A stretch of 64,000 nucleotides of DNA from Fervidicoccaceae archaeon (GTDB lineage: Archaea; Thermoproteota; Thermoprotei_A; Sulfolobales; Fervidicoccaceae): the NCBI GenBank assembly GCA_038734945.1, contig JAVYOA010000009.1, forward strand, positions 62,001 to 126,000, written 5' to 3'. Below, one piece after another: positions 21,001 through 30,000 of the stretch. How positions within the stretch are numbered: position 1 is the first letter of the stretch; each line of letters begins with the position of its first letter. Position numbers: made by a program.

Positions 21001-24000
21001 AGCTTTCTGTGCTTAATTCTCAGAACTTTCCTCTGATCCTCTCCTATTTTGTGAAGAAATGATATGACAATTATATGAGAGAAGCCCTCCAAGTTGAGGA
21101 GACCATCAGAATACTCAGGAAGAATTTCAATATAGCCTTCAACTCCTCTCCACGCTCTTTTCAAAACATCATCATCCTTGCCGTGCCTGACATATCCTAT
21201 TGGCTTGAAGCATATATACGAGAAGCTCATAGCAACTCCTCTATCAGCATATTCAATTATTAAATGCATAATGATTAAGTATATAAAAATGAAGAATTTT
21301 TTGGGATGTGCTGGTGATGTCTGAGGATGGAGTTAGGATAAGTGGGACTCAAAGAAGGGCACTTATAGCTGGAACAACAGCATTCTTTGGAGGTTTTGCA
21401 GCAGTAGCACTTTTTAACATAACAGCAAAGACCCTTTCCGAGACACTGAACCTATCTCTCCTGCAAATAGGATGGCTTGTAGCCATACCAACACTGACAG
21501 GCTCACTAATGAGGATTCCATTTGGAGCGATGGTTGATCGATATGGAGGAAGAAGGATTATTTTACTTCAGCTACTTCTTGCACTTATAGGTATGATAGG
21601 GCTTCTCCTTTCCATCGGAGCTATAATGAATAGATCAATCACATCAAGCACTCTTGGATATGCTCTGCTCATGTTTTTCGGCGCCGTTGCAGGAATAGGA
21701 ATCTCAGTCTTCTCCTCTGGAATAGCCTATGTATCCTACTGGTTTCCTCAGAGAAAGCAGGGATATGCACTCGGCTTCTATGCAGGAATAGGAAACACGG
21801 CCCCGGGAATATTTACTGGGATTCTCCCATATGCTGTAGCATCCTTGGGCTTGCTGGGCTCATATGCTGCCTGGATGCTCATACTAATCGTTGTGATTCT
21901 TATCTTCTTCTTCACTGGTAAGGATCCCTACTATTTCCAGCTTCTTAAGAAATACAACAGAGAGAGAGCAATAGAGGAAGCTAGGAAGCTTGGGCAGGAG
22001 CTCATCCCCACTGGTTCAGCAAGAGAGAGCCTCATGAAGGCCTCAAAGCTTTTCAGAACTTGGATATTTGTGATACTGTACTTCACTTCCTTCGGAGGAT
22101 TTCTTGCCCTAACATCTTGGCTTCCAACATACTGGCAGAAGCTCTTCTCTCTCCCCTCTAGCCAGGCAGGGCTGATCTCAGGGATCCTCTTCTCACTCCT
22201 CGCATCCCTCATAAGAGTAGCAGGCGGATGGACCAGCGATAGAGCTGGAGGAGAGAGGGTTGCCGTATTATCCTTCACAGTCATTCTGCTTGGCAGCACG
22301 ATCATGATGTTAAGTGCATCTTTCTCCATATGCCTGGTTGGTATCCTTGTTCTAGCATTTGGAATGGGCTTCGCCAACGCTTCAACATTCAAGATGATTC
22401 CAAAATATGTTCCGGAAGCTATTGGAGGAGCTACTGGGTGGGTTGGAGGTCTAGGAGCTCTTGGAGGCCTCCTTCTTCCTCCCGCAATGGCCTGGTTTGC
22501 TCAAGAGTTTGGAACAAGAGGCTATTCGCTCGGCTTTTCGACTTTTGTAGTTCTAAGTGCTATTTCCCTAATCCTCTCTTTCATGGTGTTCAAACTTGCT
22601 AGAAAGTAGCATTTTGGCATCGATTCTCTGGGTCATTTTGCCATATGTAGTCGTAATGACATTCATTATTGGAAATATATACAGATATGTATTTTCACAG
22701 CAGTCATGGTCCTCCAGATCAAGTGAAATATTCGAGGAAAGACTTCTGCGAATTGGTGGACAGCTCTTTCACTACGGCTTGCTGCTTGTCATCTTTGGCC
22801 ACATCCTTGGGCTGTTCATTCCTCCTAGCATTACTGCTGCTTTGGGCATCAGCGATGAGGAGTACCACATGATAGCTATAGCCATGGGCGGAACAGCAGG
22901 AGGAGCAGCACTTCTCGGGAGCTTGATACTTCTTTGGAGAAGACTAGCAGATCCAAGAGTCAGGGCAACCAGCAGCAGCTCAGATACTCTGATTCTTATC
23001 TTAATAGTTCTTACAATGATGTTTGGGGAATTCAACACTGTAGTTTATAGCGCACTGCATGGTCCCTATGACTACAGAAGCACAATTGCTCCCTGGATCA
23101 GATCCCTATTTTACAGCCCAAACCCATCACTAATGACAAGTGTTCCCCTAACATATAAAATCCACATTTTTCTTGCTTACCTTGTCTTTTTCATGTGGCC
23201 TTTCTCCAGGCTAGTTCATGTATGGAGCGTTCCCATATTCTATCTGCGTAGGCCATGGATACTCTACAGGAGGCTGGAGAGATATGAATAGAGGGAATCC
23301 AATTGAGGAAGCTAAGAGGCAGCTTTTCCCAAAGGAGAGAATTGGCGAGTGGATAGAGATAGATAGAGCTGGAAGGGAGTGGGAGGAGCTCTATAGAAGA
23401 AGGTGGCAGCATGACAATGTAGTAAGATCTACGCATGGGGTTAACTGCACGGGATCATGCAGCTGGAAGATCTACGTGAAGGATGGATTGGTAGTATGGG
23501 AGCACCAGGCAACTGATTATCCGTCCAATTCCCCAGAGCTCCCCGACTATGAGCCAAGAGGATGTCCAAGAGGAGCGTCTTTCTCTTGGTATCTATACAG
23601 CCCGCTTAGAATAAAGCACCCCTATGTTAGGAGCGCATTGCTAAGGGCCTGGAGAGAGGAACTTTCGAGAACAAATGATCCGGTTCTGGCTTGGGAGAAA
23701 ATAGTGGAGAGCGAACATGGAAGGGCGTACAAGTTTGCCAGAGGCAAAGGAGGATTTGTTCGAACATCCTGGGATGAAGCTCTCGAGCTAATCTCAGCTG
23801 CTCTGATATACACCATAAGGAAATATGGACCGGATAGGATATTCGGCTTCACCCCAATCCCAGCAATGTCAATGGTAAGCTATTCCTCCGGATCAAGGTT
23901 CTTGGAGCTAATAGGAGGAGTCATGCTGAGCTTCTATGATTGGTATGCAGATCTTCCACCAGCCTCTCCTCAAGTTTGGGGGGAGCAGACAGACGTACCG

Positions 24001-27000: not shown

Positions 27001-30000
27001 GGAAGGGGGGATGGAAGCTCGAAAATGGAGATCTCAAGCTCAGAGTAGGTGGAAGGACATCAAGGCTCCTCAGGATATTCTACAATCCTTGGATGCCTAG
27101 CATTGATGACTACTATGAGCCGTGGAGCTATACATACGAAAAACTCATAGAAGCGAAGGAAAATGAGAAGCCTCTCGCTGAGGTCAGATCCTCTATAACT
27201 CAGAAGCCTCTTACTTTGGAGAGAGGTCCAAATTGGGATGACGATCTGGCAGGATCACCCAAATTTGCATCTTCTGACCCAAATTTGGAGGAAGGTATGA
27301 GGCTGGAGTACGAAAGAATCTTCATGTTCTATCTTCCAAGAATATGCAATCACTGCCTCAATCCCTCCTGCGTAGCAGCCTGCCCTTCTGGTGCTATGTA
27401 CAAGAGAGAGGAAGACGGTATAGTTCTCGTGGATCAGAGCAGGTGTAGAGGATGGAGATACTGCATCTCAGCATGTCCATACAAAAAGGTCTACTATAAC
27501 TGGAACACACATAAGGCGGAGAAATGCATACTTTGCTATCCAAGAATAGAGACAGGCCTCCCCACTGTTTGTGCTGAGACCTGTGTTGGGAGAATGAGGT
27601 ACATGGGGCTTCTCTTATATGATGCAGAGAGAATAAGGGAGGCAGCTTCTGCAGAGGAAAGCGCTCTCCTGAAATCGCAACTGAGCATAATCCTTGATCC
27701 TAACGACCCGAAGATAGAAGAGGAAGCACTAAATCAAGGCATTTGGAAAGACTGGTTGGAATCTGCTAAAAAATCTCCAGTATTCAAGATGGTAAAAGAG
27801 TGGAAAATCGCCTTTCCCCTTCATCCTGAGTACAGAACGCTTCCAATGGTATTCTATATTCCTCCACTGAGCCCAATTCTCAGGATTTTCGAAGGAGAAG
27901 AGCTTGGAGAGCTCGAACCAGAGGACATTTTCCCAAATGTTAGGAATATGAGAATCCCAGTTGCCTATTTAGCAAAGATGTTCGCAGCAGGTGATGAGGA
28001 TTCTGTTCGCAAAGCAATCGAGAAATTGATCGCCGTAAGAGCATATATGAGGAGCATCTCTCTTGGGAGACCAAACCTGAATGTGCTAAGTGAGGTCGGG
28101 CTAAGTGAGAAAGATGCGAGAGAGATGTACAGGCTTTTGGCAGTTGCTAAATACGAAGATAGATTTGTTGTACCAAAGGCTCACAGAGAACAGTCACTGA
28201 AAGCATCAATTGAGCAGGGGTATGCTGGATTAGATGAGCTGAGGTAGTTGGATTGAAGCAAGAATTTGAGGATAGCTTTAGGTTCTTTGAAGTCGTGGGA
28301 AAGCTCCTGGAATATCCTGATACTGCCTTTTTTGAGTCAATCCATGAAGCAGAAAAAGCAATAGGAAAATTCCCAAGCAGAACCACGATACTGGAGAAAA
28401 TTGTGCTATTTAGAAAAGAAATTTCAGCACTGGATCTTTATCAGCTGCAAGAGCTCTACTCTAAGACATTTGACTTCTCAGCAGATTCTACGCTGAATAT
28501 ATCGTATTATTTTTCTGGAGATTCCAATGATAGAGGAAGAGTACTAGCCTATTTTTCCTCCTTCTATAGGAAAGCAGGAGAAGATCCTCCTAAGGATGAT
28601 TTGCCAGATAGCGTTCCCCATCTTCTCAAGCTAATCTCGCAACATCCAGAGCTGTTCCAGGAGATAGTGGCTCTTCTGGCAGTCTCTCTGCGCAAAATAG
28701 CAGAAGCCCTCAAAGAAAATCCTTATAGGAACGTCATCGAGGCAATAGAAATAGCAATTGAAGATCTAGCATTTAATTGGAAAAAGTGTGCATAGAAAAT
28801 TATTAACATAATCAAGCCAAATGGAAAAAGGCTTTAATCAACGAAAGCAACAGTTATAATGGGTTTGGTGCGAACCCATTGAAGTGGATCCCCAAATATG
28901 CTAGAAGGAAGACCAGAGCAATGCTCAGAAGCGGTGAGAAGCTGCACGTAGGCTACAGATATGAAATAAGGATCGACGATAGAACCAACCTGATATACAT
29001 ATATGATAAGAAGACCAGAAAGAAGCATGTATTTCTCAAATAGCTATTATGCTACAGGGGGATAAGAAATTAGCAAATCTATCTATCCATTTTCGATTTT
29101 CGATCCATGGAATGGAGAACTCTGCACATGTCCCAGAAAGTACTCACTTAATCCATATACAGGTTGCTCTTTTTCCTGCCTTTACTGCTATGCCAAGAGC
29201 TACATAGGCAAAAAACCCAGCATACCAAAGAGAAACTTCATTCTTCTCCTGGAGAGGGCCGTTCCGAAGCTGGATTATAGACTTCCAGTGAACTTAGGCA
29301 CAAGCAGCGATCCCTATCCAAAAGAGGAGGAAGCTTATGAATTGACCAGAGCTTCTCTGAAAATACTCGTCGAAAACAAGTTCAGGGTGCTAATAACTAC
29401 AAAGGGAGGAAAGCTAATGCTCAGAGACTTAGACATAATGCTTAGAGGGAAGATCGCTGTAACGCCTACGGTTACAACCATGAGAAGTGAAATTGCCAGG
29501 AAAATCGAGCCTGGTGCTCCCGATCCATCGGAGAGAGTCGAAGCTATGAAAGCTCTGAGCTCAAAAGGGGTGCCCGTGGGGGCAAGGATAGATCCTATAA
29601 TACCTGGAATCAACGATGATGAGGAGGAGCTGAGGGAGCTTGTAGATATCTTGGCAAGCGCCGGAGCAAGACTCATAATAACTTCTACATACAAGGCAAA
29701 GCAGCTTGATTTCAGAGATCTAGCAGAGGCGTTTCCTGAAATGGAAAATAAATGGAGAAAAATATACTTTGAGGAAGGGGAGAGAATAGGTCCATATAGG
29801 TACTTGAGAAGGGAGATTAGGGAAAAGATGCTGATGCCTGTGGTTCAAGAAGCAAGAAGGCTAGGACTTGAGTACGCTACATGCAGGGAGGGGCTTACTG
29901 CAAGAGAATTCTTCAATTCTAGATCTTGCGATGGGACGCATTTAGCTGAATAAAAAGTTTTAACTCTTTGTGAGAAAGATTCTCCGCGGTGCTTGAGATG

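Follow-up and report, generated by a model that had tools for sequence, protein, structure and literature searches.

A narK-narIGHJ nitrate reductase cassette of archaeal affinity in a Fervidicoccaceae genome with no HemA, HemB, HemC or HemD match

An operon for a membrane-bound nitrate reductase in a hot-spring archaeon of the Fervidicoccaceae, a family known for fermentation, raises two questions: where the genes came from, and how the enzyme could work in this host. An earlier note on this DNA had proposed that a bacterial operon was acquired horizontally and lets the species respire nitrate. The window analysed here is the whole stretch of 64,000 nucleotides (contig JAVYOA010000009.1, positions 62,001 to 126,000) that contains the operon. 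The reading favoured below, with a probability of roughly 0.6 as a whole, is that of an archaeal-lineage, translationally coupled, cytoplasm-facing and quinol-dependent nitrate reductase cassette whose heme is probably scavenged.

The cassette and its proteins

Five same-strand (+) open reading frames were read from the sequence at window positions 21308-28795, in the order narK-narI-narG-narH-narJ (Table 1), where the earlier note had placed the operon. The identities of NarG, NarH, NarI and NarJ were assigned with NCBIfam equivalog models and their curated cut-offs, which all four proteins exceeded; in the profile search of the genome, NarG scored 1596.6 against TIGR01580. Neighbouring frames overlap at three junctions (14, 8 and 4 nt), and 5 nt separate narH from narJ. 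The position of narI upstream of narG is non-canonical. The narG frame is open from 23218, and its probable start is the ATG that gives the 8-nt overlap with the narI stop.

Table 1. Features of the nar cassette and its flanks; scores are followed by the model cut-off where one applies.
Feature	Window position	Strand	Evidence
trmO, left flank of insertion	20709..21269	-	TIGR00104 107.1 vs 93.25; homology to G147:C1 up to 21147
Candidate archaeal TATA box TATATAAA	21280..21287	+	sequence reading; ~30 nt upstream of narK start codons
narK, MFS nitrate/nitrite transporter	21308 (GTG) or 21317 (ATG)..22609	+	MFS_1 1e-38
narI, di-heme b membrane anchor, quinol oxidase subunit	22596..23291	+	TIGR00351 211.6 vs 105.55
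narG, Mo-bisMGD catalytic subunit	23284..26820	+	TIGR01580 1598.1 vs 1084.15
narH, four-cluster Fe-S subunit	26817..28247	+	TIGR01660 738.5 vs 524
narJ, assembly chaperone	28253..28795	+	TIGR00684 66.8 vs 59.35; PF02613 5e-5
Right flank: conserved 54-codon small ORF (28879-29043), then radical-SAM gene (open frame 29066-29953)	28879..29953	+	Radical_SAM and Rv2578c-family matches

NarG matched E. coli NarG with 1321 bits over residues 51-1196, and the alignment retained the HGVNCTGSC and RGCPRG cluster motifs together with the Asp of YADLPPASP; from the E. coli structure, we take the motifs to be the FS0 His/Cys3 motif and the Asp to be the Mo ligand. All four Cys groups of E. coli NarH were kept in the window protein (CLGCHTCSVTC, CNHCLNPSCVAAC, CRGWRYCISAC and CILCY...VCAETC), the third of which contains Trp and is presumably that of the 3Fe-4S cluster. 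NarI aligned with residues 8-222 of E. coli NarI and has His at the columns of residues 56, 66, 187 and 205, which we assume to be the heme ligands of the E. coli chain. NarK is distant from E. coli NarK (57.6 bits) and scored 187.8 bits against TIGR00886, below the cut-off of 311.7; its best PDB matches were nonetheless E. coli NarK and NarU, Arg is kept at both conserved positions, and narK adjoins the nar genes in four archaeal cassettes.

From both possible starts, the N-terminus of NarG is free of RR motifs and hydrophobic stretches, which bears out the earlier statement that a twin-arginine signal is lacking. Since NarG is without a Tat signal and its anchor is NarI, a cytoplasm-facing (nNar) topology is a sensible reading of the sequence. 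The cassette likewise contains no EB_dh-type or NarC/NarB-type subunit, a further feature of pNar enzymes, whose active site in archaea faces outward according to passages of PMC7754194. Among the 30 NarG loci found in the order, 14 have a clear Tat signal (S/TRRDFLK with a hydrophobic stretch), 13 have none and three are missing the N-terminus. The contrast drawn earlier with the pNar usual in archaea thus holds for the window but was overstated, given these 13 loci and the Tat-less narGHJI and narK of Sulfolobus islandicus, described in a portion of PMC5127849 as "potentially capable of utilizing nitrate".

TIGR01580 was detected at E<=1e-100 in 28 of the 325 genomes of the order (24 above the cut-off, the host genome G000 included), in two of the seven other family genomes and in neither congener. 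The earlier counts were roughly reproduced, except that the family count is two rather than one of seven. Within the family, a sister genus has a Tat-type pNar as well as genes for heme synthesis and heme-copper oxidases, so the claim that nitrate respiration is new to Fervidicoccales is weakened; public annotation also names a NarG-type protein in Fervidicoccaceae MAGs.

Origin of the cassette and its insertion site

The proposed bacterial source was not borne out. It had been argued from 53% identity between NarG and that of Bacillus subtilis, which is indeed the best match in Swiss-Prot; archaeal sequences gave the best matches overall (64-68% identity), and 54-57% was the highest among named bacteria. 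When the five proteins were compared with two archaeal cassettes (L023 and L123) and with five bacterial loci, all were nearest to the archaeal ones: NarG at 64-68% against 47-51%, NarH at 65-68% against 53-56%, NarI at 53-58% against 34-42%, NarK at 58-60% against 24-29% in four of the bacterial loci (the fifth, from Candidimonas, had no NarK match), and NarJ at 31-38%, over 111-127 of 180 residues, against 24-29%. The order narK-narI-narG-narH-narJ was also found at L023, L091/L123 and L109, whereas narI follows narJ in the five bacterial loci. A careful IQ-TREE search on 56 NarG rows placed the window in a 10-row clade (support 100/100) and a 26-row set (99/98), both free of bacterial rows (P0003 and P0040 are without a taxon label), and a quick tree and FastTree agreed with this placement. 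The tree is unrooted and its bacterial rows are best matches plus 14 loci, so it speaks to the placement of the window rather than to the deep relation between archaeal and bacterial NarG, where an ancient bacterial origin may lie. Within the 100/100 clade, a long branch (0.34) leads to the window pair, and the direct donor is therefore not among the sampled sequences.

The comparison supports the view that the cassette is part of an archaeal branch of the NarGHI family, one that appears to circulate among archaea of hot springs (Thermoproteus, Vulcanisaeta, Caldivirga, Metallosphaera yellowstonensis and Conexivisphaera-like Nitrososphaeria). Direct passage of a Bacillus-like nNar operon from a bacterium into the host is very improbable against the closer archaeal homologues, the non-canonical gene order they share and the absence of bacterial rows from both tree sets, even though bacteria are the best-known carriers of this enzyme family, the NarG proteins with 54-57% identity come from thermophilic Bacillota, and midpoint-drawn trees put the archaeal set among bacterial groups. 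NarGH of V. distributa and M. yellowstonensis had earlier been listed, in a part of PMC3512248, as separate lateral transfers.

Horizontal gain as such was supported by the insertion site. In the congener G147 the site is empty, with the small ORF and the radical-SAM gene about 210 nt beyond trmO; in G148 the right flank is kept and nar is absent. Homology of the window to both congeners starts again at 28876/28879. These observations support insertion of the cassette as a unit, recently, into the space between trmO and the rSAM gene in one lineage of the genus. A DDE transposase fragment adjoins the M. yellowstonensis copy of nar.

Closely similar copies lie on short contigs binned as Ignisphaera sp., Nitrososphaerota and Sulfolobales, and could suggest that the operon is another organism's, brought in by assembly or binning. 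We consider such an artefact extremely improbable. Within a 536-kb contig, the cassette is flanked by genes syntenic with the congeners, in a genome estimated as 99.95% complete and 0.21% contaminated, and contigs from a different study's run span both the trmO and the rSAM junction. Its G+C content of 45.9% is equalled or exceeded by 10.6% of the genome windows. One of the short contigs, G006:C95, has remains of the cassette's rSAM flank at its end and so comes from a relative of the Fervidicoccaceae host. The cluster of NarG sequences with at least 90% identity comprises 19 members; contigs of 84-765 kb carry several of these, and members are labelled Fervidicoccaceae archaeon. The family assignment of the host also stands: its IleRS is 65% identical to that of Fervidicoccus, with identity falling to about 50% for the named taxa that come next.

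Cofactor supply, selection and proposed working

Searches for HemA, HemB, HemC and HemD (PF05201, PF00490, PF01379 and PF02602) gave no match in the 99.95%-complete genome; as positive controls, these markers were matched in 10-12 of 14 reference genomes. Despite this absence, the genome encodes the di-heme NarI, cytochrome bd (CydA and a CydB-like gene, present in G000 and G147) and a QmoC-like protein. Since the genus keeps cytochrome bd and the QmoC-like heme protein, it evidently obtains heme from some source. One encoded protein came close to the heme O synthase cut-off (207.7 vs 210.3). A NarGHI host genome without HemA-D that nevertheless encodes heme proteins is what is new here. Because tetrapyrrole synthesis is missing from the genome, nitrate respiration would probably depend on scavenged heme, a dependence read from gene absence only. 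The earlier statement that the operon lets the species respire nitrate therefore stands as regards intact enzyme genes and needs a caveat as regards heme biosynthesis genes, of which none was found. Without heme synthesis, NarGHI could be inactive in practice, and the analysis recognised no importer for heme.

Molybdenum cofactor genes are present, as had been stated (MoaC, MoeA and two MobA-like genes), and a PhsA/PsrA-like Mo enzyme is common to the host and its congeners. MqnA/D were absent from all eight family genomes and NuoH homologues were present in all eight; in the host, a UbiA/MqnP-like prenyltransferase gene adjoins a UbiD decarboxylase gene, a pair that suggests some quinone synthesis. 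For nitrite handling, the genome gave no NIR_SIR, NirK, NrfA, cd1 or COX1/NorB match. The window copy was compared with the 94%-identical copy on G006:C95. All five genes were aligned without gaps or stops, the copies differing at 5.6% of nucleotides, and in this single pair dN/dS was 0.21 overall and lowest, at 0.09, for narI, showing purifying selection on the nar genes. An RNA run contained no reads over the whole 16-kb stretch, flanks included, and is thus uninformative on nar expression.

In the proposed working, NarK would take nitrate in and NarI, the di-heme b anchor, would oxidise quinol at its outer face; electrons would pass through its two hemes b to the clusters of NarH, acting as an Fe-S wire, and on to NarG, which would reduce nitrate to nitrite in the cytoplasm. 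NarJ would serve as chaperone, and the quinol:nitrate route would form a proton-motive redox loop. Nitrite is proposed to leave the cell, because no nitrite reductase was found. For NarGHI, as for the cytochrome bd of this genus, activity probably requires heme scavenged from the community, and the chain would then be an auxiliary electron transport in the style of lactic acid bacteria and not self-sufficient.

It could be argued instead that the cassette is a recently acquired, non-functional passenger, in which no holo-NarI forms for want of heme and which is heading to decay as neutral cargo. All four tetrapyrrole markers and any recognised nitrite reductase are absent, both congeners are without the cassette, and the RNA run has no nar reads, although its flanks have none either. 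We nevertheless judge this unlikely: the five frames are intact in two copies that have diverged at 5.6% of nucleotides, the lowest dN/dS belongs to the heme-binding subunit, the 19-member cluster includes long contigs, the genus retains cytochrome bd and the QmoC-like protein, and the heme O synthase candidate falls just under its cut-off. An enzyme that works as a redox sink or in detoxification, or NarGH alone with a non-quinol donor, would fit a quinone pathway that is incomplete among the genes searched (MqnA/D absent, only the UbiA/UbiD pair seen) and the ferredoxin-linked CooFS and Hdr/Mvh-like genes nearby in the organism. The presence of NarI, the most constrained of the genes and with all four His kept, and of a quinol oxidase, cytochrome bd, in the same genome makes an arrangement of this kind quite unlikely. 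The energy-conserving quinol:nitrate loop on scavenged heme is accordingly the reading retained. A bolder and only tentative extension, against which the odds still lie, is that the genus would be the first archaeal case in which respiration runs on borrowed heme. It would be a heme auxotroph, hyperthermophilic and living mainly by fermentation, with a modular quinol chain (cytochrome bd, the QmoC-like complex and, in one lineage, a newly imported NarGHI) charged by the heme of its hot-spring neighbours. If that is true, one 7.6-kb insertion can be enough to give streamlined archaea respiratory capacity, since the supply of cofactor is left to other organisms.

Comparison with known systems

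The closest likeness is to the cassettes of Thermoproteus/Thermoproteaceae MAGs, Vulcanisaeta distributa, V. souniana and V. thermophila, M. yellowstonensis MK1 and Conexivisphaera-like Nitrososphaeria, which have the same five genes in the same order, a Tat-less NarG and a place in one 100/100 clade with the window. Unlike these, the window cassette resides in a small, 1.34-Mb Fervidicoccaceae genome without heme synthesis or heme-copper oxidase. Sulfolobus/Saccharolobus islandicus, of the same GTDB order, also has narGHJI and narK with a Tat-less NarG, 57% identical to that of the window, but in a separate clade and with narI not upstream of narG; these hosts are aerobic heme producers. Homologous but of another kind are archaeal pNar of the Haloferax mediterranei type and the Tat-type NarGH found in the sister genus (G150/G151) and in family f3 of the order. 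NarG and NarH of the window are 52% and 50% identical to those of G150, and pNar-type NarG falls in the same 26-row archaeal set. The pNar types have a twin-arginine signal and lack NarI, with a heme subunit of the EB_dh type instead, as in the G150 operon, whereas the window has NarI only.

The subunit set is that of E. coli NarGHI with NarK and NarJ (PDB 1Q16, 3EGW and 4JR9), with alignment at the FS0 motif and the Asp ligand of Mo in NarG, at the Cys groups of NarH, at the four His of NarI and at the two Arg of NarK; the window differs in its upstream narI, a shorter NarG N-terminus, a distant NarK and its archaeal clade. In way of life, the nearest parallel is Lactobacillus plantarum, which, like the window host, is mainly fermentative and has NarGHI and cytochrome bd without its own heme, and in which nitrate reduction via narGHJI requires added heme and menaquinone, as reported in sections of PMC2924693. 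It is a bacterial mesophile in which heme dependence is experimental, while that of the window host would follow from gene content; and, compared with this menaquinone-dependent bacterium, the archaeon has a UbiA/UbiD pair that hints at some quinone synthesis of its own.

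Gene content and predicted orientation of the enzyme

Five closely packed open reading frames, in the order narK-narI-narG-narH-narJ, were read on the forward strand between window positions 21308 and 28795. Overlaps of 14, 8 and 4 nt join the first four genes, and 5 nt separate narH from narJ. The four Nar subunits scored above their family cut-offs, so that the operon described in an earlier note on this DNA was borne out. NarK, which scored below the cut-off, is an MFS protein whose top solved-structure matches were Escherichia coli NarK and NarU, and alignment with these two proteins showed that both conserved arginine positions are kept. 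A candidate promoter box for narK, TATATAAA, precedes its start by about 30 nt. The window NarG shares with E. coli NarG the HGVNCTGSC/RGCPRG cluster motif and the aspartate of YADLPPASP. All four cysteine groups of E. coli NarH are kept, the third with a tryptophan, and histidines of the window NarI occupy the columns of E. coli residues 56, 66, 187 and 205. These residues presumably have the functional roles of their counterparts in the E. coli structure.

Features of the window, with family scores and the identity of the cassette proteins to archaeal cassettes and bacterial loci
Feature	Window positions	Strand	Family score (cut-off)	Identity, archaeal cassettes	Identity, bacterial loci
CooF-like ferredoxin, anaerobic CO dehydrogenase catalytic subunit, CooC-like ATPase	10466-13889		TIGR01702 675.6 (478; CO dehydrogenase)		
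narK	21308 (GTG) or 21317 (ATG) to 22609	+	TIGR00886 187.8 (311.7; below)	58-60%	24-29%
narI	22596-23291	+	TIGR00351 211.6 (105.6)	53-58%	34-42%
narG	23284 (likelier) or 23218 to 26820	+	TIGR01580 1598.1 (1084)	64-68%	47-51%
narH	26817-28247	+	TIGR01660 738.5 (524)	65-68%	53-56%
narJ	28253-28795	+	TIGR00684 66.8 (59.35)	31-38%	24-29%
Conserved 54-codon ORF	28879-29043				
Radical-SAM gene, open frame	29066-29953				
E1 alpha and E1 beta of 2-oxoacid dehydrogenase, fused in a single 685-aa ORF	32065-34122				
Three-subunit molybdenum hydroxylase (XdhA/CoxL-like, FAD, 2Fe-2S), then MobA-like nucleotidyltransferase	39016-43700				
QmoC-like membrane Fe-S/heme protein	within 57442-63343		NF038018 231.6 (300; below)		
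Two HdrA/QmoAB-like flavoproteins, MvhD, NiFe-hydrogenase small subunit	after the QmoC-like protein, within 57442-64000				

NarG N-termini were read at 32 loci, 30 of them in 28 genomes belonging to the host's GTDB order. At 14 of the loci an S/TRRDFLK signal is unmistakable, with a hydrophobic stretch behind it. The signal was absent at 15, among them the window, the Sulfolobus-type loci, the archaeal cassette L023 and the short contig L035, and the remaining three loci did not include the N-terminus. A twin-arginine motif and a hydrophobic segment are both missing from the window NarG, whichever of its two possible N-termini is taken. In the sister genus (G150), the Tat-type operon encodes an EB_dh-type heme subunit and no NarI, whereas the window cassette encodes NarI. 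Because NarG lacks a Tat signal and NarI is part of the cassette, the sequences support the cytoplasm-facing, NarI-anchored enzyme that had been proposed.

Archaeal relatives of the cassette

The cassette had also been read as a bacterial acquisition, on the strength of 53% NarG identity to Bacillus subtilis. This tempting reading had its sole footing in best Swiss-Prot matches and is corrected here. Among 5.8 billion proteins searched, the closest NarG relatives were archaeal: a Thermoproteus/Thermoproteaceae cluster (68%), Vulcanisaeta thermophila, V. distributa and V. souniana (67%), a Vulcanisaeta/Caldivirga cluster (66%), a Metallosphaera yellowstonensis cluster and Nitrososphaeria MAGs (65%), and Conexivisphaera (64%). 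The top named bacterial matches, from Thermaerobacter, Hydrogenibacillus and other thermophilic Bacillota, reached 54-57%. For all five cassette proteins, identity to the archaeal cassettes exceeds that to the bacterial loci. The archaeal relatives have in common the non-canonical order narK-narI-narG-narH(-narJ), and in all five bacterial loci examined narI follows narJ. At the M. yellowstonensis cassette (L123), a DDE transposase fragment was observed about 1 kb downstream of narJ (G291:C10, 14461-15003).

A maximum-likelihood NarG tree of 56 rows (IQ-TREE, LG+G4, careful search, unrooted) placed the window protein in a 10-row clade (support 100/100) and in a 26-row set (99/98), with no bacterial row in either, two of these rows (P0003 and P0040) carrying no name. 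Tat-less enzymes of the Sulfolobus type and the order's Tat-type clade also belong to the larger set. L050 and L004, for which wrong reading frames had been extracted and which had branches of about 4 in a first tree, were left out, and LG+G4 is less robust to long branches than a mixture model. A quick tree and an 83-row FastTree agreed with this placement. The unrooted tree neither shows nor excludes that the archaeal NarG set as a whole came from bacteria in the distant past.

Two labels in these comparisons call for comment. The NarG of L035, a 5.7-kb contig labelled Anaerolineae bacterium, is nearly identical to that of Conexivisphaera sp. (P0011), with end branches of about 0.01, and the contig is probably mis-binned. 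P0107, labelled Saccharolobus shibatae, falls among Bacillaceae (Virgibacillus, Neobacillus) with 100% support, apart from the other Sulfolobaceae; the cause is either contamination or an independent transfer from Bacillota.

Insertion into the host genome

The contig that includes the window measures 536 kb; the genome has 1.34 Mb, with 99.95% completeness and 0.21% contamination. The host isoleucyl-tRNA synthetase shares 65% identity with the Fervidicoccus enzyme and 76-77% with unnamed metagenome proteins; the next named genera are Pyrodictium, Hyperthermus and Pyrofollis at 48-49%, with 44-46% for Ignisphaera. Two of the NarG proteins at least 90% identical to that of the window carry the label "Fervidicoccaceae archaeon". 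From these identities and labels the host is thus a Fervidicoccaceae genus other than Fervidicoccus. The cultured relative of the host genus is known as an anaerobic organotroph.

Horizontal gain, the other part of the proposed origin, is supported. TIGR01580 was found in 28 of the order's 325 genomes and in two of the seven other genomes of the family, both of genus g3, and in neither of the two congeners. In the congener G147, trmO is followed after about 210 nt by a conserved small ORF and a radical-SAM gene. In the window the cassette separates trmO, on its left, from the small ORF and radical-SAM gene, on its right; homology with G147 ends at 21147 and restarts at 28876. The second congener, G148, keeps the right flank and lacks nar. 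The empty site and these break points thus mark the cassette as an intergenic insertion no longer than 7.6 kb; contigs of a run from another study span both of its junctions. The small ORF precedes the radical-SAM gene in all three genomes. In the radical-SAM gene itself, whose frame is open from 29066, the CxxxCxxC motif comes before the first ATG, GTG or TTG (29288), and congeners have GTG or ATG at the corresponding start; its start in the window is therefore likely non-canonical or damaged. As a sign of foreign origin, G+C was not discriminating: the cassette has 45.9% against a genome mean of 43.1%, the standard deviation among 7.5-kb genome windows is 2.4%, and 10.6% of them equal or exceed the cassette's value.

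At 90% identity or more, the NarG cluster has 19 members, some on contigs of 84-765 kb and many on contigs of 6-10 kb that are variously binned. One contig (G006:C95, 7,986 bp) matches the window at 94% identity over precisely the cassette, and a remnant of the same radical-SAM flank forms its end; it therefore derives from a relative of this organism and was probably put in the wrong bin. It carries two 24-nt CRISPR-like direct repeats with a 65-nt period (158-246) directly upstream of narK, an inverted partial copy at its 3' end (7965-7986) and a 795-bp deletion in the radical-SAM flank. A related repeat is present as a single copy in the window's genome at C9:188326. Either a rearranged locus or an artefact of assembly may account for this arrangement. 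Between the two cassettes there are no indels and no stops, and dN/dS is 0.21 overall (narI 0.09, narG 0.18, narH 0.26, narK 0.31, narJ 0.41), which indicates purifying selection on the cassette in this one pair of copies.

Cofactor supply and comparison with known systems

The host encodes MoaC, MoeA and two MobA-like proteins, in agreement with the earlier note. A PhsA/PsrA-like molybdoenzyme is common to the host and both congeners, so the molybdenum infrastructure predates the insertion. The PhsA/PsrA-like operon and MoeA adjoin a TnpB-family RNA-guided endonuclease gene (L129, G000:C1:211000-223000; 7821-9101). A UbiA/MqnP-like prenyltransferase adjoins a UbiD-family decarboxylase, and MqnA/D was found in none of the eight family genomes. 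NuoH homologues occur in all eight and may be part of complex-I-like or Mbh/Mbx-type complexes. Cytochrome bd oxidase (CydA and CydB-like) is encoded in the host (G000:C2:30756-33013, L128) and in G147. Elsewhere in the window, the genes at 10466-13889 together make up a predicted Ni-CODH module; the family is known for organotrophy. Those at 57442-64000 may constitute an H2-linked module for quinone or heterodisulfide.

No match to GlutR_N, ALAD, porphobilinogen deaminase or HEM4 (HemA-HemD) was found in the 99.95%-complete genome, by family searches that gave control hits in 10-12 of 14 reference genomes. Within the family, ALAD and heme-copper oxidases were found in genus g3 only. A UbiA protein (G000:C1:22349-23104) scored just under the heme O synthase cut-off (207.7 against 210.3), which fits a heme-handling organism. 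The absence of HemA-HemD from a genome that encodes cytochrome bd, the QmoC-like protein and the heme O synthase-like protein suggests a heme auxotroph carrying heme-dependent enzymes. NIR_SIR, NirK, NrfA, cd1 and NorB/COX1 were not found in the genome. An auxiliary chain is the most economical reading: it would take nitrate only as far as nitrite and would need exogenous heme. No RNA run was listed as containing the cassette. One metatranscriptome run, from the same study as a DNA run that does contain it and of which about 3% was read, gave no reads anywhere on a 16-kb stretch that takes in housekeeping flanks, and has no bearing on expression.

The mismatch between heme-dependent enzymes and a genome without heme synthesis is testable: hemin and nitrate in enrichments may be required for respiration to become visible, and might perhaps improve growth of these archaea. 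In hot-spring nitrogen cycling the organism would act as a nitrate-to-nitrite reducer only. Because the empty site persists in a congener, the cassette also offers a clean, datable case of an entire respiratory module moved between hot-spring archaeal lineages.

Among the papers listed from the CC-licensed PMC and bioRxiv literature, none was found that ties a nitrate reductase to Fervidicoccaceae, Fervidicoccus or Fervidicoccales, and none of those on Fervidicoccales dealt with respiration; the novelty claimed for Fervidicoccales does not extend to public annotation, which already gives these Nar proteins their names. The cassette extends nitrate-reducing potential to a Fervidicoccaceae genus. 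NarGH of Aeropyrum, Vulcanisaeta, M. yellowstonensis, S. islandicus and Pyrobaculum are each described as lateral transfers in PMC3512248, a Tat-less narGHJI with narK in S. islandicus appears in PMC5127849, and for narGHJI of Lactobacillus plantarum PMC2924693 describes an experimentally demonstrated need for exogenous heme. Beside these systems, the window holds a known archaeal cassette in a new host; its insertion site is well resolved, and its cofactor dependency was unexpected.
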